A DNA stretch of 38,001 nt. Origin: Chiloscyllium plagiosum (Eukaryota). Each line of letters opens with the position of its first letter. Within the stretch, counting starts at the first letter, position 1. The stretch spans positions 6,227,477 to 6,265,477 of the forward strand of contig NC_057759.1 in the NCBI RefSeq assembly GCF_004010195.1, given 5' to 3'. Both the position numbers and the translations under genes were made by a program. The notes under the pieces are model-generated. The model had not been told where the DNA came from and did no database searches. It worked only from the letters and a program-made list of their open reading frames with translations. This document shows, in pieces, positions 2,101-31,575 of the stretch.

Positions 2101-4547
2101 TTTTACAAATAACAAAACTCGAATCTCTTTGTCAGCGGCCTAGACAGACATCTCTCTGGCTGACAGCGAGAAATCAGAATAGTGAGCTATCTTCCTGGTG
2201 ACAGAATTAAGGAAAACTCGGAGAGAGTGCACGATATTCACAAAAGCAAGAGGGACCAGCTGGAGTAAACACTGGAACTAACTACATAGGAAGGGAAAAG
2301 GATGAGATTCCGAAGGAAGAATAAGGAAGAGAGGCAAGAATTTAAAAAAGGAGGTCCTCTCCGATAGTGATATCTAATTTACTCCCTCTGCTCCGAGCAA
2401 GTGAGGGTAGGAATAGGATGATAGAGTAAGAAAATGCCCAACTCAGGAGTTGGTGCATGGGGAGAGGCTTCACATTGTTGGATCATTGGAATCTCTTCGG
2501 AGGAAGACGTGACTTGTATAAAAATGGATGGATTGCACCTGAATTGGAATGGATCTAACATACTGGCAGGGGCATTTCCTTGAACTGCTGGGGAGAGGTT
2601 AAACTAGTAAGGTGTGGGGGCAGGAACCAAGGATATAGTGAGGAAAGAGAGCGATCTGAAACTGGTATAGTTGGCAAGTCAAACAGTCAGGACAGGCAGG
2701 AACATTGCAGAGAATGAGGTAGGATTCATAAATTAAACTGCATTTATTTCATGCAAGAAGCCTAACAGGGAAGGAGGATGAACTCAGGACATGAATAGGT
2801 GAATGGGATTGGTGTTGGGATATCATAGCTATTACAGAGACATGGTTTGGGGATGACAACTGCAGCTTAATGTTCCAGGAATCAAAGGATGGGGGTGAGG
2901 GGAGCAGCAAGAGAAAATGAGGAGTGACGTGTTTGGTAAGAGATAACATTTCAGCTGTACTTAAGGAGGATTTTCCTGGGATTACATCCATGGACATTAT
3001 TTGGGTAGAACAGAAATAAGAAAGGGTTTGATCACCTTATTGGGATTGGACTGTAGACACCCAACAGTCATCAGGAAATTGAAAAACAAATTTGTAAGGA
3101 GATCTTAGATCTGCAGGAACACTGGTATGGTTATGGTGAGGGATTTTAACATTTCAAACACAGATTGGGGCTGCCATATTGTTAATGGTTTTGACAGAGA
3201 GGAATTTCTTAAGTGTGTACAAAAATAATTGATTCAATATGTGAATATATCTTCTAGACAAGGTGCAAAACTTGATCTACTCTAGGGATGTAATGATGTG
3301 TCAGTTGGGGAGCATTTTGTGGCCAGCGACCATAATTCAATTAGTTTTAAAACTGTTATGCAAAAGGATATCAAGATCTCAAAGTTAAATTTTTGACAGT
3401 ATTACGCAAGAACTTTCAAAAGTTGACTGAGGGCAGATGTTCACAGGCCAAAGGGATGGCTGGAAAATGGGAAGCCTTCAAAAATGAGAAAAGGAGGGTC
3501 CAGAGACAGCATGTTCGTGTTAGAGTGAAAGGCATGATCGGTAAGTGTAGGAAATGCTGGATGAGAAAAGAAATTGAAGTTTTCGTTCGAATAAGAAGGA
3601 AGCATGTGCTAGGTATGTACAGCAGAGATTGAGTGAATCCTTCAAAGAGTATAAAGGCATTAGGGATATACTTAAGAAGGAAATCAGGAGGGCAAAAAAT
3701 GGACGAAAGATAGCTTTAGCAAATAGTGTTAATGAAAATTCAAATGTATTTTATAAATACATAAAGGACAAAAGGGTAACCAGGGCAAGATTAGGGCACA
3801 GCAAAGATTAGCAAGGCAGCTTATGTGTGGAACAACAGGAAATGTGGGAGATACTAAGCGAGTGCTTACTGAGGAGAAGGAAATGGAAGATATAGAATGT
3901 GGGGAAACAAATGGTGACATCTTGAAAAATGCCCATAATACAGAAGAGGTGCTGCTGGATGTTTCTAAACAGAAACGGTGGATGAAGTACGAGCACCTGA
4001 TCAGGTGTACCCTGGAACACGGTGATAAACTAGGGAAGTAATTGTTGGGCCCCTTGCTGAGATTCCTGTATCATCGATAGTCACACGTGAAGTGCAAAAA
4101 GACTAGTGGTTGGCTTTCGTAATGCCAATATTTAAGAAAGGTGGTAAGGAAAAGCCAGGGAACTATTGACTACTGTTGATGTTGCACTCACTGTTCAAAC
4201 AGTTGAGGGGATTGTGGGAGGCAGGATTTACATCTTTTTGAAAGGCCAGGATTGATTGGAGTAGTCAACATGGCTTTCTGCGTGGGAAGTCATGTATCAC
4301 TAACTCGACTGAGTTTTTTTTGATTTGGCAAGGAAGAGGACTGATGAGGCCAAAGTGGTGGATGTGATTTACATGGTCTTCAGTAAGGGGTTTGTTTGTG
4401 TTCCCCGTGGGAAATTGGTTAGCAAGATTACATCATATGGAATACAGGAAGAACTCACCAATTGGAAACAGAACTTGTTCGAAAGTAGAAGACAGAGGGT
4501 GGTGGAGGGATGCTTTTCAGACTGGAAGCCTGTGACAATTGATGTGC

Positions 4548-4714
4548 GAGGAGAAAGTGAGGACTGCAGATGCTGGAGATCGAGCTGAAAAATGTGTTGT
4601 TGGAAAAGTGCAGCAGGTCAGGCAGCATCCAAGGAGCAGGAGAATCGACATTTCGGGCAAATGCTGCTCGGGATGCGGCCTGACCTGCGTTTTTCAAGCA
4701 ACACATTTTTCAGC
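4548..4714. mobile_element. Fold-back PLE pLTR insertion (family A)
   Basis: A minus-strand pLTR (GGAGAAAGTGAGGACTGCAGATGCTGG...AATCGACATTTCGGGC) is followed by its partial inverted copy. It is flanked by ACAATTGATGTGC (4535-4547) and ACAAGTGATGTGC (4715-4727). Confidence 0.8.
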
Positions 4715-4779
4715 ACAAGTGATGTGCTACAACGATTACTGCTGGGTCCACTGCATTTCATCATTTATATAAATGATTT

Positions 4780-6790: not shown

Positions 6791-6938
6791 GAGAGGCAGC
6801 AGGAGCAGGGAGCTGACGGCGGGTTGTCCCTGCGCCGTCCGCTCGCTGCCTTGAAGTTGCTCAGTGCCGCCGCCAACAGCTTCATTGCTGACCCAGTTCA
6901 GACTGATCCAGAAAGAGATTCAGCGCAGAGTTCTCAAC

Positions 6939-7640
6939 ATGAGCGACAGTGCAGCCGCCGAAACGGCTCCTCCAGCCTCCGCTCCCACCAAAGCCAAGGC
7001 TCCCAAGAAGAAGGCAGCGGCTCCCAGGAAAAAAACACCCGGTCCCGGATTAGGAGAGATGATACTGAAGGTTGTCGGGGATATCAAGGATCGCAAAGGG
7101 GCGTCTCTGTCCGCTGTAAAGAAGGCGCTGGATAGAAGCGGAATCGATGTGGGAAAGCGAAAGGCACAGATCAAGATGAGTATCAGGAGGTGCCTGACGA
7201 ACGGCTCCCTTGTTCTGGTCAAGGGCCATGGCGTCTCCGGCTCCTTCAAACTCCCAAAGAATCCAGTCAAGGCAAAAGCGGGAAAGAAGGCGGGAACATC
7301 AGCGGCCGCCAAGAAATCGGCCGTGAAGAAATCACCGGCCAAAAAGGCGACAGCGAATAAATTCCAGGCCAAGAAAGCGACAGCCAAGAAATCCCCAGCC
7401 AAGAAAGCGACAGCCAAGAAATCCCAGGCTAAGAAAGCGACCGTCAAGAAATCCCCAGCCAAGAAAGCGAGCGGCAAGAAGACGGCACCGCCAAAGAAAG
7501 CGGTGAGCAAAGCAGCGCCAAAGAAACGCACTCCCGTGAAGAATGTGAAAAAGATCAAGGGTCCTAAACCCCTCAGCAAACCGGCTAAAAGCAAGGCCAA
7601 GCCCAAAGCGAAAGTGACCAAGACAGCAGCAAAGAAATGA
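6939..7640 (+). CDS. H1: Histone H1 (replication-dependent, 233 aa)
   Basis: ATG at 6939 starts MSDSAAAETAP. The globular domain includes DRKGASLSAVKKAL and GSLVLVKGHGVSGSFKL, followed by a K/A/P-rich tail with SPAK repeats. The gene is intronless and has a 3' stem-loop and HDE. Confidence 0.96.
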   Translation: MSDSAAAETAPPASAPTKAKAPKKKAAAPRKKTPGPGLGEMILKVVGDIKDRKGASLSAVKKALDRSGIDVGKRKAQIKMSIRRCLTNGSLVLVKGHGVSGSFKLPKNPVKAKAGKKAGTSAAAKKSAVKKSPAKKATANKFQAKKATAKKSPAKKATAKKSQAKKATVKKSPAKKASGKKTAPPKKAVSKAAPKKRTPVKNVKKIKGPKPLSKPAKSKAKPKAKVTKTAAKK

Positions 7641-7676
7641 ACCAGTCAGTGTAATATACACCCATCTGAACCCAAA

Positions 7677-7719
7677 GGCTCTTATCAGAGCCACCCACTT
7701 GTCTCAGGGAAGAGCTGAG
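7677..7719 (+). terminator. Histone 3' stem-loop (GGCTCT-TATC-AGAGCC, 7677-7692) and HDE (GAAGAGCTGAG)
   Basis: CCCAAA-GGCTCTTATCAGAGCC-ACCCA, with a purine-rich U7-binding element ~15 nt downstream. Confidence 0.92.
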
Positions 7720-7854
7720 CCCGGATCCAATGTACACGAGAACCCGGACTACAAATCTTCTCACAAACTTTGTCTTCGGGCTAATTACAATCGAGGTAAT
7801 TTTAAAAATAACAGACAAAATGAGATTCTGTCCTTTAATCGGTGTACACTAATT

Positions 7855-7965
7855 TTAAATTGGCGGGGTTGTTTAGATTGATTCACGGCCGGTACAAGTT
7901 CGGTTGTTCAGTTTGTCTGGGCTATTTTAAACCCCGCCTTTCCTCCCGCCTGTTACAGACAGACC
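7855..7965 (+). promoter_or_regulatory. Probable orphaned histone (H3) promoter/5' UTR
   Basis: Reverse CCAAT (ATTGG, ~7859), GC boxes and a TATA-like CTATTTTAAA (~7922). It ends exactly where the PLE begins and lies upstream of the 5'-truncated H3. Confidence 0.45.
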
Positions 7966-8555
7966 GGTGTGGCCTCCTCTATATTGGGGAGACAGGCCGC
8001 CTACTTGCGGAGCGATTCAGAGAGCACCTCTGGGCCACCCGGACGAACCAACCCAACCACCCTGTAGCACAGCATTTCAACACCCCCTCCCACTCCACCG
8101 AGGATATGCAGGTCATTGGACTCATCCACCGCCAAACCACAACAACCCGACGGTCGGAGGAGGAGCGTCTTATCTTCCGACTGGGAACCCTCCAACCACA
8201 GGGGATGAACTTGGACTTCACCAGTTTCTTCATCCCCCCTCCCCCCAACTTGTCTCAGCCGAATCCCTCCAGCCCGGCACCGCCGTCCTGACCTGCAGTC
8301 TTCTTCTTGACCTCTCCGCCTCCATCCTACTCCGACCTATCACCCTCACCTTGACCTCTTTCCACCTAGCACATTTCCAACGCCCCTCCTCCAAGCCCCT
8401 CCTCCCTACCTTTTATCTTCTCCTGCTGAACACTCTCTGCTCATTCCTGAAGAAGGGCATGTGCCCGAAACGACGAATCTTCTGTTCCCTAGATGCTGCC
8501 TGACCTGCTGTGCTGTTCCAGCAATAAAGTTTCAACTTTGATATGCAGCAAGACC
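7966..8555 (+). mobile_element. 5'-truncated Penelope-like element: GIY-YIG endonuclease C-terminus plus pLTR with hammerhead motif
   Basis: CGLLYIGETGRLLAERFREH...PVAQHFN...EERLIFRLGTLQPQGMN, then a pyrimidine-rich UTR and CTGAAGAAGGGC...GCCCGAAAC. Confidence 0.9.
8443..8478 (+). ncRNA. Minimal type I hammerhead ribozyme motif, cleavage triplet mutated (GAC in place of GUC)
   Basis: ATTC-CTGAAGA-A-GGGC(ATGT)GCCC-GAAAC-GAC-GAAT: stem I ATTC/GAAT, stem II GGGC/GCCC, and conserved CUGANGA and GAAA boxes. Confidence 0.75.
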
Positions 8556-8559
8556 TAAC

Positions 8560-8827
8560 TTGGAGATGTTGGTAGTGGACTGTGGTGGACAAAGATAAAA
8601 ATCACACAACACCAGGTTATAGTCCAACAGGTTTATTTGGAAACACTAGCTTTCAAGGCACTGCTTCTTCATTAGGTGGTTGTGGAGAATAAGGTCATAA
8701 AACAGCATTTATATCCAAATGAGTACAGTGTCATGGAGATGTGATGATACATTAAACAATTTAAGATAAATTTAGGATGGGATGTGTTGGTTTCTGTTCT
8801 TTGGTATGTAAATCCCAGAACTTCTTT
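8560..8827 (-). mobile_element. PLE family B pLTR/3' UTR fragment with degenerate hammerhead
   Basis: It shares AAAATCACACAACACCAG.TTA.AGTCCA.CAGG with 34966-35000, which links to a PLE ORF end. The minus strand at ~8645-8677 reads CTAATGAAGAAGCAGTGCCTTGAAAGCTA. Confidence 0.8.
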
Positions 8828-8829
8828 AA

Positions 8830-9210
<381 letters not shown>

Positions 9211-9262
9211 ACGGAGCCTGGCCGGCCCTGCACATTCACCCCGGGAGAGAGAGAAACACAAC

Positions 9263-9301
9263 GGCTCTTTTCAGAGCCACTAAACTATCCAGAGAGAGCG
9301 G
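9263..9301 (+). terminator. H3 3' stem-loop (GGCTCTTTTCAGAGCC, 9263-9278) and HDE-like AGAGAGAGCGG
   Basis: Canonical 16-nt hairpin followed by a purine-rich element. Confidence 0.92.
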
Positions 9302-10455
9302 GAAACGATAGGGGACCTGAGAGCATAACAGTAATTTGCTCTTGCCGCACTAAGTCAATTCTGTTGTTAGTAAATATACTTTGAATCTAACCTAGCCGGG
9401 GGAGGTAGTTGGAAAACACACGGCTTTCAGCGGCAGTGATTAGAACATTGCGATGTAATTTTTACACAATATATTAGGTAGGGAAGTGTTAATTCCAGAT
9501 GAAATCTCCTTTCTCCTCATTGTCTCCCTTGGTCTTGCCACCAGCTGTAACAAGATGATCATTGCTGAGAAAACAGGCGGGAAAAAGGGCGCCAAATCAT
9601 CAACCGTTTTCTTTCAAATTTGAAAATCCCGCCACGATGTAGATCAGAGAAGGCAATTTTATTAAAAAAAGCAATGCATTCGTACCTCGTCGTTAATTTG
9701 CTTTTCGATGATAAAAGTACAATTCTCACAATTTTTCTTTTGGGTAATGGGTCCAGGAGCTATTTAAAGGATTCAAGATTCTCTTTCGAGGGAAGGTTCA
9801 GACTCGATGGGCCGAATGCCCTCAATCAGCCCTGTCAGGATTTCATGAACGTTCTTTGCCGGGAGCGCGTTGCTAACGAACACCGCCCTTAGATATTATT
9901 TTAATATCGTGCTCCCTTATTGCAGAAGCTCCACATTAACGATTCCAATCCGGCAAATGTTCTGGTTTGATCTCGGTTTATTTTGAAAGCTTCTAACCGA
10001 CAGCAGAAAACCTCATTTACATCATTCAATCATCATTCCCACCCAACAGAACCCGCACGGAGTTTTGGAAATAAAAAAAAATCAGTGTGTAATGTATCTA
10101 CCCGTGGATCTGTAAGAAAAGGGGCATTTCTTTTGTTTCCCGGGGTGATACTCAGGGCTAACATCCCAACCGCGGCTTGCAGCTCCTGGAATAATCAAAT
10201 ATTAGAGAGTAACTTGAGCAAACAGAGAGAGAGAAAAAATCACCGGTGTTTAATATGCTCCCAAGAGGCAGGGAGTAGAGAGGGCACGTTCTCTTTTGCA
10301 GCCAGCGCCAAATCATCATCAACTTTCTCTCCCATTCGAAGAGCCCGCCGATTTACAAACAACGGAGTATGTTTGCATTGAAAAAGAGGACGTTGTTCAG
10401 AGGAGAATCCATCAATACTTGTTAATTCGATTACAAATATATACTTCAGAATATG

Positions 10456-10484
10456 AGGTAAAAACAATGACTGCAGATGCTGGA
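10456..10484 (-). mobile_element. 29-bp terminus of a young PLE family A pLTR
   Basis: Exact reverse complement of 19352-19380 (TCCAGCATCTGCAGTCATTGTTTTTACCT). Confidence 0.75.
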
Positions 10485-18058: not shown

Positions 18059-18093
18059 TGATTTGGAGATGCCGGTGTTGGACTGGGGTGTAC
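18059..18093 (-). mobile_element. PLE family B pLTR end, apparently continued at 23902-23912 after the Tx1 insertion
   Basis: TTTGGAGATGCCGGTGTTGGACTGGGGTGTAC on the left and ACAAAGTTAAA on the right together match the contiguous sequence in the copies at 4930-4971 and 8561-8600. Confidence 0.7.
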
Positions 18094-19036
18094 CCTATCC
18101 CGACACCTAGCCCACGACCTGCCCTGCCCCAACGATGCCCCTGCGGCCGTGCCAGCGTCGACCTGGCGCGGGAACCCTGACCCCCAAACCCGTACCTGAC
18201 CCTGGCCCTACTGACACCACATCCCGTTAGAGAAACCCCTGGGGCATCAACACCTGCCCCTGGCGCTGCAACACCTAGCACGGGGGCCCCCGAGCCCAGC
18301 CACACCCTAGCACTAACCTGGGGGAAACCACCGCTGCCACACCTCCTTCAGCGACCTCTGGGCCCCCGGAGAGGGAACTGGGCCCCGTCCCCGCCCGCCC
18401 TCACCTGATAAACCAGGGGCGGGTCAGGAAGTGACACGGCTGTCCCTCCCCACCCTGGCCATGCCCCCTGTATTCCCCCAGCCAATCGTATTCCGGGAAA
18501 AGCTGGGGGGGGGGGGGGGTACCTCGGGCCCCATGACCACCAAGGTGGGAGGGCAGGGGAAGACCCATAAATTCCCCACTGTCTTTCTGGGGAAGAGGCG
18601 TCGGCCCTTGGAGGGGAGAGACACTCCAGCGGCCCCTCCCCTCCCCAGGGGACAGGCCAACGGTGCCTCTCGACTCTCCTGCACCGCGGCCCAACCTACC
18701 CGAAACTCCCAGGGGCTGCAGCAGGGCCTCCTGCCTCAACTCCTCCGGCCCCTGGGGAGGACTATAATAACCACGCGGGCCGTGGTGCAGGCGACAACGG
18801 AGGACCCTCTGCTGGGTTGTAGAGGGGAGGAATGTGTTATTCTCACTCCTCCCTCCCAGACTGTTTTTCCGGGGGCCTTGGCCCTGGGGGAGGACCTTTT
18901 CCCCGAGGAGCCGGGCGTCCCTGTGTCGGGAGAGGAGCGGGGCCCTGAGCCTCTGCTGCCCGACGACCCGAACGCGGGGCGTTCCGGGAAGGGTTGCGTC
19001 GAGGAAGGTACCGCCGGTGACCCTGGGGGTAGGGTC

Positions 19037-19377
19037 TGTATCAGTGGTGCTGGAAGAGCACAGCAATTCAGGCAGCATCCGAGGACGGGCAAAAGCCCTT
19101 CATCAGGAAAGGGAACTGGGCCCCTTCCCCGCCCGCCCTCACCTGATAAACCAGGGGCAGGACAGGAAGTGACACGGCTGTCCCTCCCCACCCTGGCCAC
19201 GCCCCCTGTATTCCCCCAGCCAATCGTATTCCGGGAAAAGCTGGGGGGGGTACTTGATGAAGGGCTTTTGCCCGAAACGTCGATTTTGCCTGTCCTCGGA
19301 TGCTGCCTGAATTGCTGTGCTCTTTCAGCACCACTGATCCAGAATCTGGTTTCCAGCATCTGCAGTCATTGTTTTTA
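19037..19377. mobile_element. Composite PLE insertion: inverted pLTR + copy of 18368-18522 + pLTR, with 15-bp TSD
   Basis: TSD CCTGGGGGTAGGGTC at 19022-19036 and 19378-19392; minus pLTR 19037-19108; filler 19106-19253; plus pLTR 19254-19380. Confidence 0.9.
19254..19285 (+). ncRNA. Minimal hammerhead ribozyme motif (UUGAUGA core, GUC site)
   Basis: TTGATGA-A-GGGC(TTTT)GCCC-GAAAC-GTC-GATT. C3 is read as U, and the 5' strand of stem I is replaced by filler DNA. Confidence 0.7.
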
Positions 19378-22300
19378 CCTGGGGGTAGGGTCGCCGGGGG
19401 TTTGAGGCCAGTTGGCAGTGCCGGACCAGCCCCATCCTCTCGGTGGGGGAGGGGTCGGTAACCGAAGGCGATCTCCCGGAGGAGGGTTCGAGATCGGTGG
19501 GGGACGACGTGGACTCTGTCTGCAGTGACATTTTCGAGTCCCGGGTGCCCCCCAACGATCTCCTCCCCCTCGAGGAACTCCGAGAATTTGTCGAGGAAAT
19601 TCTGAGTCGCCAGGATAGAGCCCAACTCGCACTCGACCGCTGGAGCTCCTTTGAAAGAGTTTACTGGTCGGCCCATGCTGCTCGTCAGGTGCCTGGGCTT
19701 GACGTAAATGAGTGAAAGCGAGTCAGGAACTTCCTGGGGGCACTCCTGGTGAGGGCGAGTGACTTCTGTGCCCCTCCCCCGTCCTCCCAGTAAATGGATA
19801 TATCGGTTTTTAACTGTACTGGTGGTGGTTGCACAACGCTTCCGACATGGAGACAACTATAGCCAGCCTCAACAGCAACGGCAGCAGGGAATCACAGCAC
19901 AGATTCCAGACCCTTTCGGTCCTCCGGGACGGGAGGTATGCGGTGTCCTTCCTGCAAGAAACCCACACTACCCCAGGAGACTAAGCGACCTGGCTCCTGG
20001 AGTGGGGTGGGGGGGGTCGACATGAGTCACCTCACCGCAGATCTGGCTATCTTGTTGGCCCTGCATTTTCAGCCGGAGATTTTGGTGGTCAGGGAGCCTG
20101 TGCCAGGCCGTTTGCTTCACCTGACTGGGGGACGCGGTGCTTCACTTGGTGAACGTCTACACTCCTCTGGCTGGACTGAGGCAAGCGAGCTTCTTCGAAG
20201 AAGTGTCCGCTCATCTCGCCTCCATCGACGAGAACCAGTGCATCGTCCTCGGGGGAGATTTTAACTGCGTCCTCGAGGGCAGGGACCACGGCGGTGCCCG
20301 CACTGGTTGGGCGTCGGGGAGGAGGTTGGGGGACTTGGTCAAGTCTGGCGGAATCTCTATCCCGACTCCATTGCCTTCACCTTCGTGAAGATTCTGGTCG
20401 GAGCGTCCAGAATCGACCTCCTGTATGTTTTGCGGGCGTACGCCTCCTGTTTTCCGAAGGCCTCCATGCGGCAGGTGTCGTACACGGACCATCACCTGGT
20501 GTGGGCAGAACTCCTTCCGTTCGGCGCCAGGCTCGGCTCCGCGTACCGGCACTTTAACAACCTGCTGCTGGAGGACGAGCGGTTCCGGGACTCGTTTCGT
20601 TGTTTCTGGGCAAGCTGGAGAAGGAAGCGGGGAAGCTTCCCCTTTGAGGCTATGGTGGGACGTGGGCAAGGCTCACGTCCGCGTCTTCTGTCAGGAGTAT
20701 GCGAGGGGGTCGACAAAGAGGCGGAAATCCAGGATCGGGAAGTTGGAGAGGGAGATGCTCGACCTGGAGTCACGCCTCGGTTAGCCTGACGCGGACCCGG
20801 CCTGTACGGGGCGTACGAAGAGAAGAAGGCCGCGCTCTGGGACCTGCAGCTCCTCGGGGCGCATACGTGAGGTCGTGGATCCAGCTCCTCCAGGACCTGG
20901 ACCGCAGCTCCCCCTTCTTCTACTCGCTGGAAAAAAGGTGTGGCACCTGTCAGCAGCTCCTTGTGTTGCTGGCCGACGACGGGTCCCTCGTCTCGGATCC
21001 GGAGGGGATCAGGGCCCACGTCCGAAAGTATTACACGGTTCTGTTCTCTCCGGATCCGTCCAGAGAGGATGCTCGCAGAGTTCTGTGGGAGGACCTGCCG
21101 CAGCTCGGCCCGGAGGACGCCGGAAGGCTCGATGCTCCCGTCGCTTTAGAGGAGCTGACCGGCGCCCTCGACTGGCTCTCGAGGGGAAGACCTCGGGGCT
21201 GGACGGGCTGACTGTGGAGTTCTTCAGGACGTTCTGGGACTCCTGGGGAGCGACTACGCACAAATCCTGGGGGGGTGTCTAAATGCTGGAGAGCTGCCCC
21301 TTTCTTGGCGCAGGGCTGTCATCGTCCTGCTGCCAAAGAAGGGGGATCTTCGTTCTTTGAAGAACTGGTGTCCGATCTCCCTCCTCAGCACGGACTACAA
21401 AATCTTCGCCAGGCTGTTGTCTTCTTGTCTGGCCTCCGTGCTGGCCCACGTGATTCACCCGGACCAGTCCTACATGGTCCCGGGCCGGAGGATACACGAC
21501 AACGTTCACCTGGTCCAGGACCTGATCCATTTCTGTCGATGGACTGGTCTGCCGAGCGCCTTCCTGTCTCTTGACCAGGAGAAGGCATTCGACAGGGTCG
21601 ATCACGAGTACCTGCTCGGGACTCTGCGGGCATTCGGGTTCGGGATGTAGTTCGTCGCCCGGAACCGACTTTTGTACGCTGTCGCAGAGTGTCTGGTTAA
21701 AGTTAACGGTACCCTGATGGCGCCCCTTCGCTTCGGGAGAGGAGTGTGTCAAGGCTGCCCCCTGTCCGGCCAGCTGTATTCCCTGTGCATGGAGCCTTTC
21801 CTGCGCCTCTTGCGGAGGAGGTTGTCGGGGCTGGTTCTGCGCGGCGCGGGCACGGGGGTGGTCCTCTCGGCCTACGCTGACTTTCACTGACCCGGCGAGG
21901 ATGCGCGAGTGCCAGGCCGTGTACTCGGCAGCGTCTTCCGGCAGGATCAACTGGGCCAAATGTTCCGGACTACTGGTCGGTCTGTGGTGGGTGGACTCTT
22001 TGCCGGAGGAGTTACGGGGGTTCAGCTGGAGTACCACCCATTTCCTTTACCTGGGGGTCTAACTCAGCCCGGCTGAGGAATCCTGGCTGGTCAACTGGCA
22101 GGAGCTGGAGACCAAAGTCTCGGCTCGCCTAGGCCGCTGGACAGGACTGCTCCGAGTGCTATCTTACAGGAGTCGAGTGCTGGTCATAAACCAGCTGGTG
22201 GCCGCCATGCTGTGGTAGCGGCTGGTCACTTTGGTCCCTCCTCCTGGCTTTGTCGCTGACATTCAGAGAACGTTGGTCGACTTCTTCTGGGACAAAAAGT

Positions 22301-23699
22301 TGCACTGGGTCACCGCGCAGGTTCTGAGTCTCCCTATTGAGGAGGGCAGTCAGTCGCTGTTGTGCGTCCACACCCAGGTTGCGACGTTCCGCCTTCAGAC
22401 CTTGCAGTGATACCTTTACGTCGAGCCTCCTCCTAGGTGGTGCGCCCTGGCAATGTATTTTTTTCCGCCAGGTGCGTAGCCTCAACTACGACACGCAACT
22501 CCTGTTCGTCGACCGTGACGGTTTGGAGGTTGCCCTCAAGACGTTGCCTGTCTTTTACCAGGACCTGATCACTGTTTGGAACATAGTCGAATCGCATCGC
22601 GCCTACCCTCCGGCAGGAGTAGCGGCTGTCGTCAGGGAGCCGTTGCTCAGGAATCTGCACCTCCGTACTCGCGGGTTCGAGTGGCTGTCGGAGGGGAGGG
22701 CCGTGGCGGCGAGAATGACCATGGTCGGGGAACGTGCTGGGTGCCAGGGGCCTGGGCTGGATGCTGCCGCAGGACATAGCGAGCAGGGCAGCGGTAGACG
22801 TCCGGTACGTGGCCACAGCCATCCGACGCCTTAAAATGGCGGTGCTCGGACCCGACGTAGTGCACCAGTTGGAGGATGCTCAGGTGTGCGGTGGGATCCC
22901 GTCCGTACTCACCCCAGCCCGGACAGAATTTCAGATTGGCCCCAAGGTCCCCTACTTCCCGCGGGAGCCTGTGCCCCAAAACCTGAGCCGCCTCCAGAAT
23001 TTTAATTTTGTTCCCTTCCAGGGGGTAAAAAGGAGGGCCCTATATAGACTTCTGCTGCACACCGTCCACCTCTTCTCCCACCGTCCGGACACGCCTTGGC
23101 GTGCCCATTTGCCACCGGGCGGTGGGGATCCCCAGTGGAGGGCTCTCTACACGGGAGTCCTCCCACTTTCTCTCGGGGATCTGGGGTGGAGGGTGCTGCA
23201 CGCAGCGGTCCCCTGCAACTGCAGATTGTAGTGGTTCACGGACTCCTAGCCCAACTGCTTGTTCTGTGGCGCTGTGGAGACCATGGACCATGTGTATATT
23301 GGGTGTGGGCATTTGCACTCCCTTTTTGATTTTCTCAAAAACCTCCTCTGCTTTTGGTTGCACTTCAGTCCCACGCTCCTGATCTTCGGGCACCTGGTAT
23401 GGAGGAGGAAGGGCAGGTCTGAAGACCTCCTCGTGGGTCTGCTCCTGGGCCTGGCCAAACTGGCCATCAACAGGACCAGGCAGCGGGCCGTGGAGGGGGT
23501 CGTTAGGGCTGACTGCCTGCCCCTGTTCAGCGGTTACGTTAGAGCCCGGGTGTCCTTGGAGAAGGAGCACACGGTGTCCACCAACACCCTGGAGTTGCTC
23601 AGGAAGAGGTGGGCGCCGCAGGGAGTGGAGTGCATTATTTCCCCCTCCGACTCTATTTTGATTTAGTCGCTACCCTCCCCTTCACTGTTTTGATCACAC

Positions 23700-23873
23700 A
23701 GCATTGCCCTTTGAGGTGAAGGGCAGTGCTTGTCACTGGCCACTCGAGTGTTTTCCTATCTTCCTGGTGGTGGAAATTGAATAAAGATTCGTGCACTTTG
23801 TGTCTCTCAGTGTCTCACACCTACACCATGGGTGCTGGGGAAAAATAAGCACTACCGCAGTTAGGTGGTAGTG
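23700..23873 (+). other. Two stem-loops in the Tx1 3' UTR
   Basis: AGCATTGCCCTT/AAGGGCAGTGCT (23700-23730) and CACTACCGC/GTGGTAGTG (23850-23873), immediately before the A-tail. Confidence 0.65.
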
Positions 23874-24244
23874 TGGGGGTTTAAAAAAAGAGAGAAAAAA
23901 AACAAAGTTAAAGTCATAGATATATAAAGCATGTTAACAGTTGCTGGTTAACAGACATTCGCGTAAGGTTGAGAAATGTTATAAATCCCTAAATGAAACT
24001 GCAAGACGCCTAAATGAAAAGTGCAGCAACGTGGTTTAGTTTCAGCTTCTTCTCAAGGTTTAGAAAATAACCCACTCTCAAGATCAGAAATGGACAGATA
24101 CAGATCGGCAAATGAGGGAGAGTAAGACCGTGTGAAGTACACATTTGTAAACTAAAAGTAAATTAACATGAGTATTAATGTTTTTTGAACTTCCTCAGTT
24201 TTTGTACTTCATTATTCAGGTAAGACATACTCCTTTGTTTGGAG

Positions 24245-25719: not shown

Positions 25720-25760
25720 CCGCTCTCTATCGGAGGGTTTGAGTGGCTCTGAAAAGAGCC
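25720..25760 (-). terminator. H4 3' stem-loop (25745-25760) and HDE
   Basis: The minus strand reads CCCAAA-GGCTCTTTTCAGAGCC-ACTCA, followed by AGAGAGCGG. Confidence 0.93.
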
Positions 25761-25795
25761 TTTGGGTTCGCTGGAAAAGGGTCGCTTTATTATAC

Positions 25796-26743
<948 letters not shown>

Positions 26744-26996: not shown

Positions 26997-27106
26997 AGTT
27001 AAAAATCGCACAACACCAGGTTATTGTCCAACAGGTTTTTTTGGAAGCTCCTGATGTGTGATGTTTAACATTGTGCACCCCGGTCCAACACCGGCATCTC
27101 CAAATC
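26997..27106. mobile_element. Short fold-back PLE family B insertion
   Basis: Inverted pLTR pieces flanked by TCAACTGATATCA (26984-26996) and TCAATTGGTATCG (27105-27117). The paralogous site at ~33076-33090 is empty. Confidence 0.8.
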
Positions 27107-27299
27107 AATTGGTATCGAATCACTTGAAAAACAAACACAATCCCCAGACAAGGAGCAGCTCAGAGCAACAATGGAATCAGATCCGTGGTTCTGGTTAAGT
27201 TGTTGGCTTTAAATAAAAAAAACACATCCTAATTCATATGCAATGAATGTGATAATGATCAGTTCAATATTGCCAGACGAGCCTCGTGTTGATTTACAG

Positions 27300-30374: not shown

Positions 30375-30665
30375 TTCCAGCCAATTTAAATGTTGAGCTA
30401 TTGCTGTAGTTATCGCTCATTTCCTCGTGGGTGGAGGCAGGTCAAGCTCCAGCCGGTCTGCTAATTCCAGCAGCTTGACATTAATCACTTTTTGCAAAAA
30501 TCTGAAGCCACTTCTTCCATTCCAGCCAATTTAAATGTTGAGCTATTACTGTAGTTATCGCCCATTTCCTCGGTGGGTGGAGGCAGGTCAAGCTCCAGCC
30601 GGTGTGCTAATTCCAGCAGCTTGACATTAATCACTTTTTGCAAAAATCTGAAGCCACTTCTTCCA
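30375..30665. repeat. 145-bp tandem duplication within the gag relic
   Basis: 30375-30519 and 30520-30665 are nearly identical, with TTCCA microhomology at the junction. Confidence 0.92.
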
Positions 30666-30714
30666 CCCCCAGAAAACTCTTGACTCAGAGCAATTGGTAT
30701 CCCAAGCACTTTTT

Positions 30715-30833
30715 CCTAATGAAAGGCTGATGCCTGAAACATTGATTCTCCTTCTCAGATGCTGCCTGACCTTGCTTTTCCAGTGCTACATTCTCGCCTC
30801 TGATCTCCAGCATCTGCCGTCCTCACTTTCTCC
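30715..30833 (+). mobile_element. PLE family A pLTR with degenerate hammerhead
   Basis: CTAATGAAAGGCTGATGCCTGAAACATTGATT...CTCCAGCATCTGCCGTCCTCACTTTCTCC, flanked by CCAAGCACTTTT and CCAAGCGCTGTT. Confidence 0.8.
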
Positions 30834-31575
30834 AAGCGCTGTTTAAACCAATTGAATTCAACATTCGGAACAAAAGACGCTAAGACTTATCCTTCACTGT
30901 CTTTGAGTCCAACAACCCGAATCCCAAATCAGAACTACAGAATAAATTCTGCAAACAGCCCTCAGCCTGTTATGGAAAAGGCCAGACCCCCTCCAAACAT
31001 TTCAACAAAGTAACCCAGACCCTAACTTTGCTAGTTGTTTTAAGCAGGTATAACGAAGATATTCCAGGGGGGGATGCAGCTGGTCAAACTAGTAGTTTTA
31101 AACAAAACAGTTTGATTTACGAATTTACCGAATGATACACAAACAAAAGAGTACAGAATACTAAATAACTTAAAAATCCAAAAACCCAACAGATTATATC
31201 AATTTAATGATGGTGGGTTCAACATTTACAACAATCCCCATAAACACCTCTTGGCACAAAAGGTAAAATCAAACACAGGGTCTTACAGGAGAGATGTAAG
31301 AGAGAGTGTACCAGCATGGACCTGCTTCTTTGGGTTCAGCAGCTTTTTCAACTGTCTGACTGCTTTCAGTCAATAGCCAGACAGCCAAAAACCAAATCAA
31401 ACCACAGAAAAGCTGAGCTGGTAAAACTGGGATACTCCCCTTTCATTGTACAAGTGTTCTATTTAAAAATGTGGAAGCCTTTTGCCTGGGGCATTACCTG
31501 TTAGCTATAATCAAAATGGCCCTAAAACCCATCAACTTCGACTTTACAAGTTGTTAAAGGAGCAGCAGCATCACA

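Follow-up and report, generated by a model that had tools for sequence, protein, structure and literature searches.

The window analysed here is a stretch of 38,001 nucleotides from the Chiloscyllium plagiosum genome (contig NC_057759.1, positions 6,227,477 to 6,265,477 of the forward strand). It contains a broken non-LTR retrotransposon (of the class without long terminal repeats) that is interrupted by a composite insertion, in which two ends of a Penelope-like element (PLE), placed in inverted orientation, enclose a filler copied from DNA of the host-element family (Table 1). The structure is real, belongs to a single locus and was locally templated, and it is built from steps known in other retrotransposons. 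The host element, which we take to be Tx1-like, has an A-rich 3′ end and a Pfam RVT_1 match at 21159–21647 (E-value, 2 × 10−15; one of eight pieces matched). An endonuclease-like start was recognized by eye at 19847, no Pfam match was obtained in the region beginning there, and a second Pfam scan gave one sub-threshold match among four pieces.

Table 1. Coordinates of the composite insertion, its host element and a related PLE in the window.
Feature	Position	Strand	Basis or remark
Host: 5′-truncated, broken non-LTR retrotransposon (approximate ends)	18093..23903	+	RVT_1; multi-copy in reads
Donor segment with microhomologies GGA (18368–70) and CCT (18522–24)	18368..18524	+	500–650 bp left of the target site
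Left copy of the target-site duplication	19022..19036	+	Exact match to 19378–19392
Inverted, tail-less PLE end with an 18-bp internal deletion	19037..19109	-	Sequence comparison
Filler, 144 bp, direct-orientation copy of 18372–18522	19110..19253	+	97% over 145 nt
Tailed PLE end in sense orientation, from the hammerhead box onwards	19254..19377	+	Family 3′ end extends to 19379–80
Tail of 34–37 nt, right arm only	19344..19380	+	Arm-end comparison
Right copy of the target-site duplication	19378..19392	+	Exact match to 19022–19036
Related PLE 3′ portion: GIY-YIG frame remnant, 3′ untranslated region, then hammerhead-box module	7839..8560	+	Atlas GIY-YIG 0.95

Layout of the composite insertion

As described in the first-pass annotation of the window, an exact 15-bp direct repeat, which occurs only twice in the whole window, brackets an insert of 341 bp. 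Reads were examined in four sequencing runs at a cut-off of 88%, with about 4% of every raw run sampled; the variant counts given below are minimum values, from the 40 of 251 variants listed. In other copies of the host family, 145 reads of set X21 and 140 reads of set X22 pass directly from 19021 to 19378 and contain the 15-mer once each. The repeat is a genuine target-site duplication, and its empty form is seen in other family copies, not in an orthologous allele. Both duplication copies read A where the family reads G (139/160 reads at 19031 and 444/464 at 19387), which indicates that this host copy had mutated before the PLE arrived.

Both PLE ends, which had been annotated as pseudo-LTRs, are present. 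The minus-strand arm had been drawn to 19108, and only its right edge required revision: 19109 is a PLE letter, so the arm ends there. The plus-strand arm starts directly after the filler, as annotated, and the 3′ end of the PLE family overlaps the duplication by 2–3 letters (2,976 reads of set X21 have loose ends behind 19379 and 6,749 behind 19380; agreement, 0.33–0.35). At the outer junctions, letters are shared with the duplication, namely TC on the left (19035–36, also fitting the PLE) and CCT on the right. Such sharing is expected if each 3′ overhang primed synthesis; by composition it would be met in 6% (TC) and 2% (CCT) of cases, and it is weak evidence when taken alone.

With the ATG of the hammerhead box as the starting point of the count, the end of the right arm falls at +121 to +124 and that of the left arm at +85 to +87; this offset of 34–37 nt constitutes a one-sided tail. 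PLE insertions have been reported to carry an extension of 30–40 bp on one side only (PMC3846280, PMC8557442, PMC11167929), and a PLE from Anolis cuts and extends both strands in vitro, with two reverse-transcription start sites bounding the tail (PMC11167929). Such an offset between the arm ends fits a course in which each target strand primed synthesis. Of about 73 positions that can be paired between the arms, 3 differ (about 4%). In addition, the left arm is devoid of 18 bp matching 19275–19292 of the right arm, among them the GAAA box and the triplet predicted to be cut; this deletion sits between imperfect direct repeats. Inverted, 5′-truncated, head-to-head ends, as present here, are common in the family reads.

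The short arms can probably be tied to a PLE through the related 3′ portion listed in Table 1, in which the same end module (at 8448; 72% identity to the right arm over 104 nt) follows a GIY-YIG-like remnant. The Pfam GIY-YIG match of this remnant is sub-threshold (E-value, 0.079). No PLE reverse transcriptase (RT) turned up in the window, where no search was aimed at one.

Other PLE remnants were observed in the window. An older head-to-head pair from a sister PLE subfamily is found at 4535–4727 (arms, 4549–4714), with no filler, a tail on the left arm only and a 13-bp duplication containing one mismatch. This pair repeats both arm end points of the composite, with the same tail-length offset, and its centre lies downstream of the hammerhead box, not at the box. 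A single tailed arm at 30700–30845, whose duplication is imperfect and about 13 bp long, is broken just 5′ of the box (30712), and a tail-only insertion of 29 bp at 10456–10484 is identical to the end of the right arm. About 45 bp before the single arm, a 146-bp tandem duplication (30375–30665; 97%) comes to an end. It was considered as a second capture and rejected, since it is located outside the duplication of the neighbouring PLE insertion.

The position assigned at first pass to the inner junctions, at the hammerhead box, proved correct; the proposed tie between the hammerhead and the capture was not supported. An intact hammerhead core is found in neither arm: the right arm reads TTGATGA (C3 → T), where the family reads have CCTGATGA, and the left arm bears the deletion described above. 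In the family, CC precedes TGATG, as read from a consensus of loose ends in 14,002 and 13,938 reads (agreement, 0.67). Moreover, filler-free arm-to-arm joints, leading from 19109–10 to the right-arm box, account for at least 186 (X21) and 163 (X22) reads over 13 of the 15 joints listed from a total of 440; the best of them is represented by 101 and 96 reads, and such joints also occur in 42 and 38 contigs of sets X1 and X2, respectively. Thus, the box is the usual meeting point of the family arms, with or without a filler, and is nothing special to capture.

An Rfam scan of the window (E-values up to 1) produced five matches, none of which was a hammerhead, and folding of the in-window motif at 8440–8485 (z, −0.28) gave no energy support for one. 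If the hammerhead core is numbered as we assume, the predicted cut falls after 19281, about 28 nt from the filler junction at 19253/54. Ribozyme cleavage was rejected as the cause of the junctions because of this wrong position, and as the cause of the 18-bp deletion because the deletion ends miss the cut site and are flanked by imperfect direct repeats. Insertion in vitro is reported not to need ribozyme cleavage (PMC11167929).

Source and copy number of the filler

The filler matches 18368–18512 with 97% identity over 145 nt at an offset of 738 (blastn E-value, 1 × 10−63), and the match continues past a G-run to 18522. The source, the offset and the shorter G-run of the filler (8 versus 15 in the donor) had all been recognized at first pass, where the copy was described as about 148 bp long with about five substitutions. 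The extent was not upheld: the fifth mismatch is the PLE letter at 19109, so the unambiguous filler measures 144 bp, with four internal substitutions (19125, 19159, 19162 and 19200; 4/144, or 2.8%). A length of 148 bp is obtained if the shared GGA (19106–08) and 19109 are counted.

Comparison with the host family revealed three site pairs at which donor and filler share a derived letter. The family letter, not the shared one, was found in 69/79 and 27/29 reads at 18388/19126, in 88/97 and 58/62 reads at 18472/19210, and in 66/71 and 42/44 reads at 18501/19239; the shared letters are therefore missing from 87–96% of the family reads. The chance that a random copy would have all three is below 0.001 if the letters are independent, which they are not among kin copies. 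At a fourth site pair, donor and filler both differ from the family (family letter in 115/121 and 54/61 reads) and from each other. At 18387, the donor alone is derived, the family letter T (69/79 reads) being the same as in filler 19125, and each copy has one change resembling CpG decay, at 18462 in the donor and at 19159 in the filler. These donor-only and filler-only changes indicate that both copies have mutated since the capture. The family letter was found in 455/457 reads at 19466 and in 491/495 at 19460, and its near-universal presence at 19466 indicates that close kin of this host copy are few.

On the evidence of the three shared derived letters, the template was an already decayed genomic copy, either the one found here or a near-identical paralogue, and not a distant copy. 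A local origin of the filler is very probable. The first-pass annotation had named local DNA or a Tx1 transcript as the template. The local origin was borne out, and the messenger RNA of an active Tx1 element was rejected, as the donor had already decayed before it was captured.

Read depth in the filler bins was only 24–37 per run, versus a right-arm depth of about 20,000; most of the reads in these bins carried host-family letters. Thus, the composite is a single-locus or low-copy structure and not a spread element, and the fixed multi-copy chimera envisaged at first pass as an alternative was not found. Motif scans of metagenome and viral contigs yielded 0 loci with the first motif. With the second motif, six loci were obtained, whose matches to the window covered only 20–24 nt and were dismissed as chance.

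Several further observations concern the donor segment. Within its G-run (18505–18519), two contigs of set X2 end and start at 18512, and six G's are missing in 4/29 and 5/42 raw reads, which hints that the shorter run is ancestral and that the run of the donor has expanded. The right filler junction lands beside the top G4Hunter top-strand score (2.76) of 18093–19500, a value that depends on the 15-G run, possibly lengthened later. The filler is in frame with the donor (offset, 738), and one frame remains open for 362 codons through both arms and the filler (18317–19405), probably by chance in a dead, GC-rich element.

Formation of the composite

The account that we favour, with a probability of about 0.5 for the whole of it, involves two primed complementary DNAs (cDNAs), the tailed one of which borrowed the top strand of the left flank and then annealed to the other. 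The PLE protein would have cut both strands 15 nt apart inside the old non-LTR copy, leaving two 3′ overhangs. The right overhang would have primed reverse transcription at the tail end of the end module through 2–3 nt of microhomology, and the left overhang 34–37 nt further in, through 2 nt; both cDNAs would have stopped just 5′ of the hammerhead box, the usual arm end in the PLE family. In the ordinary case, the two cDNA ends would be joined directly. Here, the right (bottom-strand) cDNA would first have found a partner 500 bp away, in the left flank, whose top strand had probably become single-stranded through resection. Paired with it over about 3 nt (CCT, 18522–24), the cDNA would have been extended leftwards by 144 nt, released its template and annealed via GGA to the left cDNA. 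The capture would thus have taken place during insertion, and the copying may have been performed by a host repair polymerase or by the PLE RT.

Priming of reverse transcription by both target strands, already suggested at first pass, appears to be the likeliest origin of the arms, as judged from the tail-length offset, the outer microhomologies and the extension observed in vitro (PMC11167929). The filler is a direct-orientation copy, for which the left (top-strand) cDNA would need the bottom strand of the donor as its template, and the right cDNA the top strand. Resection of the left flank in the 5′ to 3′ direction leaves its top strand single-stranded. Taken together, orientation and resection polarity favour the right, tailed cDNA as the copying strand. 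Direct-repeat inserts are reported to arise when one end templates on the other, resected end (PMC7165422).

A number of points weigh against this account. It is drawn from one event only, and the variant counts are minima. A released bottom-strand fragment would give the same orientation, so that polarity is not decisive. The inner microhomologies named at first pass (GGA on the left, CCT-like on the right) are indeed 3 nt each, but each has one letter out of place, and both are common in the left flank (GGA at 25/927 positions, 2.7%; CCT at 45/927, 4.9%). Inserts made by polymerase theta (Pol theta) are typically 3–30 bp long and come from within about 30 bp (PMC7165422), and L1 templated insertions are reported to come from within 15 bp of the site (bioRxiv 10.1101/2024.08.27.596794); the filler exceeds the former in both length and distance, and the latter in distance. 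Finally, none of the 16 contig pieces listed, of 47,458, spans a junction of the composite, and the ends of two contigs of donor type, at 18418, lie one base past the 18417 predicted from a k-mer shared with the filler.

The filler may also have been acquired after insertion. A plain palindrome joined at the box would have formed first, and its centre would later have broken and been patched by the host with nearby DNA, the PLE being merely a fragile site. Filler-free joints at the same position are common, so a break at the centre would yield box junctions unaided, and a 180-bp human palindrome is reported to have mediated insertions (PMC7999016). The 18-bp deletion in one arm suggests a remodelled locus, and the filler–donor divergence is nominally below that between the arms. 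However, the gap between 4/144 and 3/~73 is not significant (p = 0.47 and 0.71 in Fisher tests of near values). The two divergences are compatible with a single event but are no proof of it, and the comparison is too weak to argue against later capture, which also weighs against the favoured account. Compared with the usual joint of the family, the centre has lost almost no arm sequence, and the arms, at 70–90 bp, are short; later repair is therefore considered unlikely. Synthesis of one continuous strand was weighed as well: the tailed end alone would be RNA-primed, and its cDNA would jump to the donor top strand, snap back and join the left target. Self-priming has been proposed for PLE palindromes (PMC3846280), R2 is reported to snap back onto its cDNA or nearby target DNA (PMC11371274), and the arms share minority letters, pointing to one source lineage (the family differs at 19066 in 4,705/5,510 reads, from one mate class). 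Such a course is nevertheless improbable, as the left arm has a PLE letter at 19109 that is absent from the right arm and hence was not copied from it (a single base), and the column at which the tail-less arm ends is shared by two insertions and matches a second reverse-transcription start site.

As regards the template, the PLE RT might have jumped from its own RNA to a read-through transcript of the sense strand of the decayed locus. The polarity fits, the locus lies among histone genes, and the L1 RT is reported to switch between RNAs (PMC11702581). The host element, however, is 5′-truncated and had acquired at least three private changes in the segment before capture, so that it is no active master. 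Entry and exit at internal points, with microhomology, are in keeping with annealing of the repair type, and an RNA template is very improbable. A source in another near-identical host copy, either a segmental duplicate or a member of a small sub-lineage, would explain why the family letter is missing in 12/108, 13/159 and 7/115 reads (6–11%) at the three diagnostic site pairs, which is somewhat above our expectation for one locus at this depth, and why the family letter at 18387/19125 persists in the filler; other duplicated blocks do exist in the window. Yet, the counts at 19466 and 19460 show that relatives are very few, and a template 500 bp away is simplest, so that this source is extremely unlikely. 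An assembly artefact would account for the unbridged junctions, and the best sequencing run contains only 0.45 of the sampled words (0.07–0.11 in the runs of two other organisms). This explanation is scarcely credible, given that the 15-mer is truly doubled here and single in other copies, with the same derived letter in both, and that donor, filler and both arms have decayed independently. A contig of set X2 (18394–18512) offers weak and indirect support for the filler: its depth is 11, versus 7.3–7.9 in its neighbours, where about 1.3-fold is expected with the filler present, and its end coincides with the eighth G, the point of divergence between filler and donor.

The composite is a single dead insertion in a dead element and has no function of its own. 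The tracing of the filler by shared mutations means that flank DNA 500–650 bp away was usable as a template at the arm junction, and, on the basis of this one event, it is plausible that PLEs act as a mechanism of local sequence capture. More tentatively, PLE integration may pass through a long-lived state in which cDNA is present on both target ends, one flank is opened over 0.5–1.3 kb and the cDNA recurrently copies 100–250 bp of this distant flank. If so, shark genomes would hold hundreds to thousands of such fillers, the side and orientation of which, relative to the tailed arm, would record the first-primed strand and the closure of the insertion. The fillers would then serve to read out, in nature, how PLE transposition is completed, its second half being unsolved: what follows first-strand synthesis was left unvalidated in the 2024 in vitro paper (PMC11167929). 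The traced filler yields a prediction that can be counted, namely the side and orientation of the donor versus the tailed arm, in a genome whose PLE family is very large.

Genomic surroundings and comparison with known systems

The host element appears to be located in the end of another common repeat: 18059–18093 is 94% identical over 35 nt to 27073–27107, and the repeat resumes at 23895–23915, after the A-rich tail. A target preference of the host element for this repeat end is possible. The window resembles a histone-gene region, with H1, H3 and H4 frames (recognized by eye) at 6855–7717, 8830–9302 and 25720–26150, each with a histone stem-loop after it. In the H3 copy, the normal start is missing and the frame looks shifted near the end. 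An inverted duplicate of 406 bp (782–1187 and 26338–26743; 97%) is present in two copies 25 kb apart.

Capture of sequence between pseudo-LTRs and local templated inserts at L1 have already been published; what differs here is a source traced to 500–650 bp away and a position between two PLE ends. A literature search, with most subscription journals uncovered, found no paper on locally templated fillers in PLE insertions. Insertions of endonuclease-containing (EN+) PLEs share with the composite the head-to-head arms, the tail on one arm, the duplication and the ATG in the hammerhead box (PMC3846280, PMC8557442, PMC11167929). The 3′ end lies about 120 nt after this ATG here and 111–118 nt in Anolis, and the predicted cut site 25 and 26 nt after it, respectively (PMC11167929). 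Unlike these insertions, the composite consists of end modules only, without a coding region, and has a filler at its centre. Solo pseudo-LTRs of Adineta vaga likewise enclose unrelated sequence, with a target-site duplication around the whole. The cargo there is unrelated or was moved in trans (a non-ribosomal peptide synthetase gene between direct pseudo-LTRs), and the accessible text reports no local source (PMC3846280), whereas the source here was traced by derived letters.

With the minimal hammerhead, the motif shares the box, the extra base before helix II, the G–C pair opening helix II and the palindromic helix III, and pairs of opposite-strand hammerhead motifs 100–700 bp apart were described in a 2014 report. 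It differs in that both copies are damaged and that the junctions fall at the 5′ edge of the motif, not at the cut site. The direct-repeat class of Pol theta inserts (PMC7165422) and R2 snap-back (PMC11371274) have in common with the composite a priming by short microhomology and the copying of flanking or nearby DNA before joining. Pol theta tracts, however, rarely exceed 10 bp per round, and a filler of 144 bp from this distance is not a typical Pol theta templated insertion. The L1 templated insertions, of which 22 cases among 3,598 insertions (bioRxiv 10.1101/2024.08.27.596794) and three further cases (PMC11702581) have been reported, similarly contain less than 250 bp of nearby genomic DNA, and strand-annealing synthesis has been proposed for them. 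Their templates typically lie within 15 bp, whereas the filler described here came from 500–650 bp away and bridges two inverted PLE ends.

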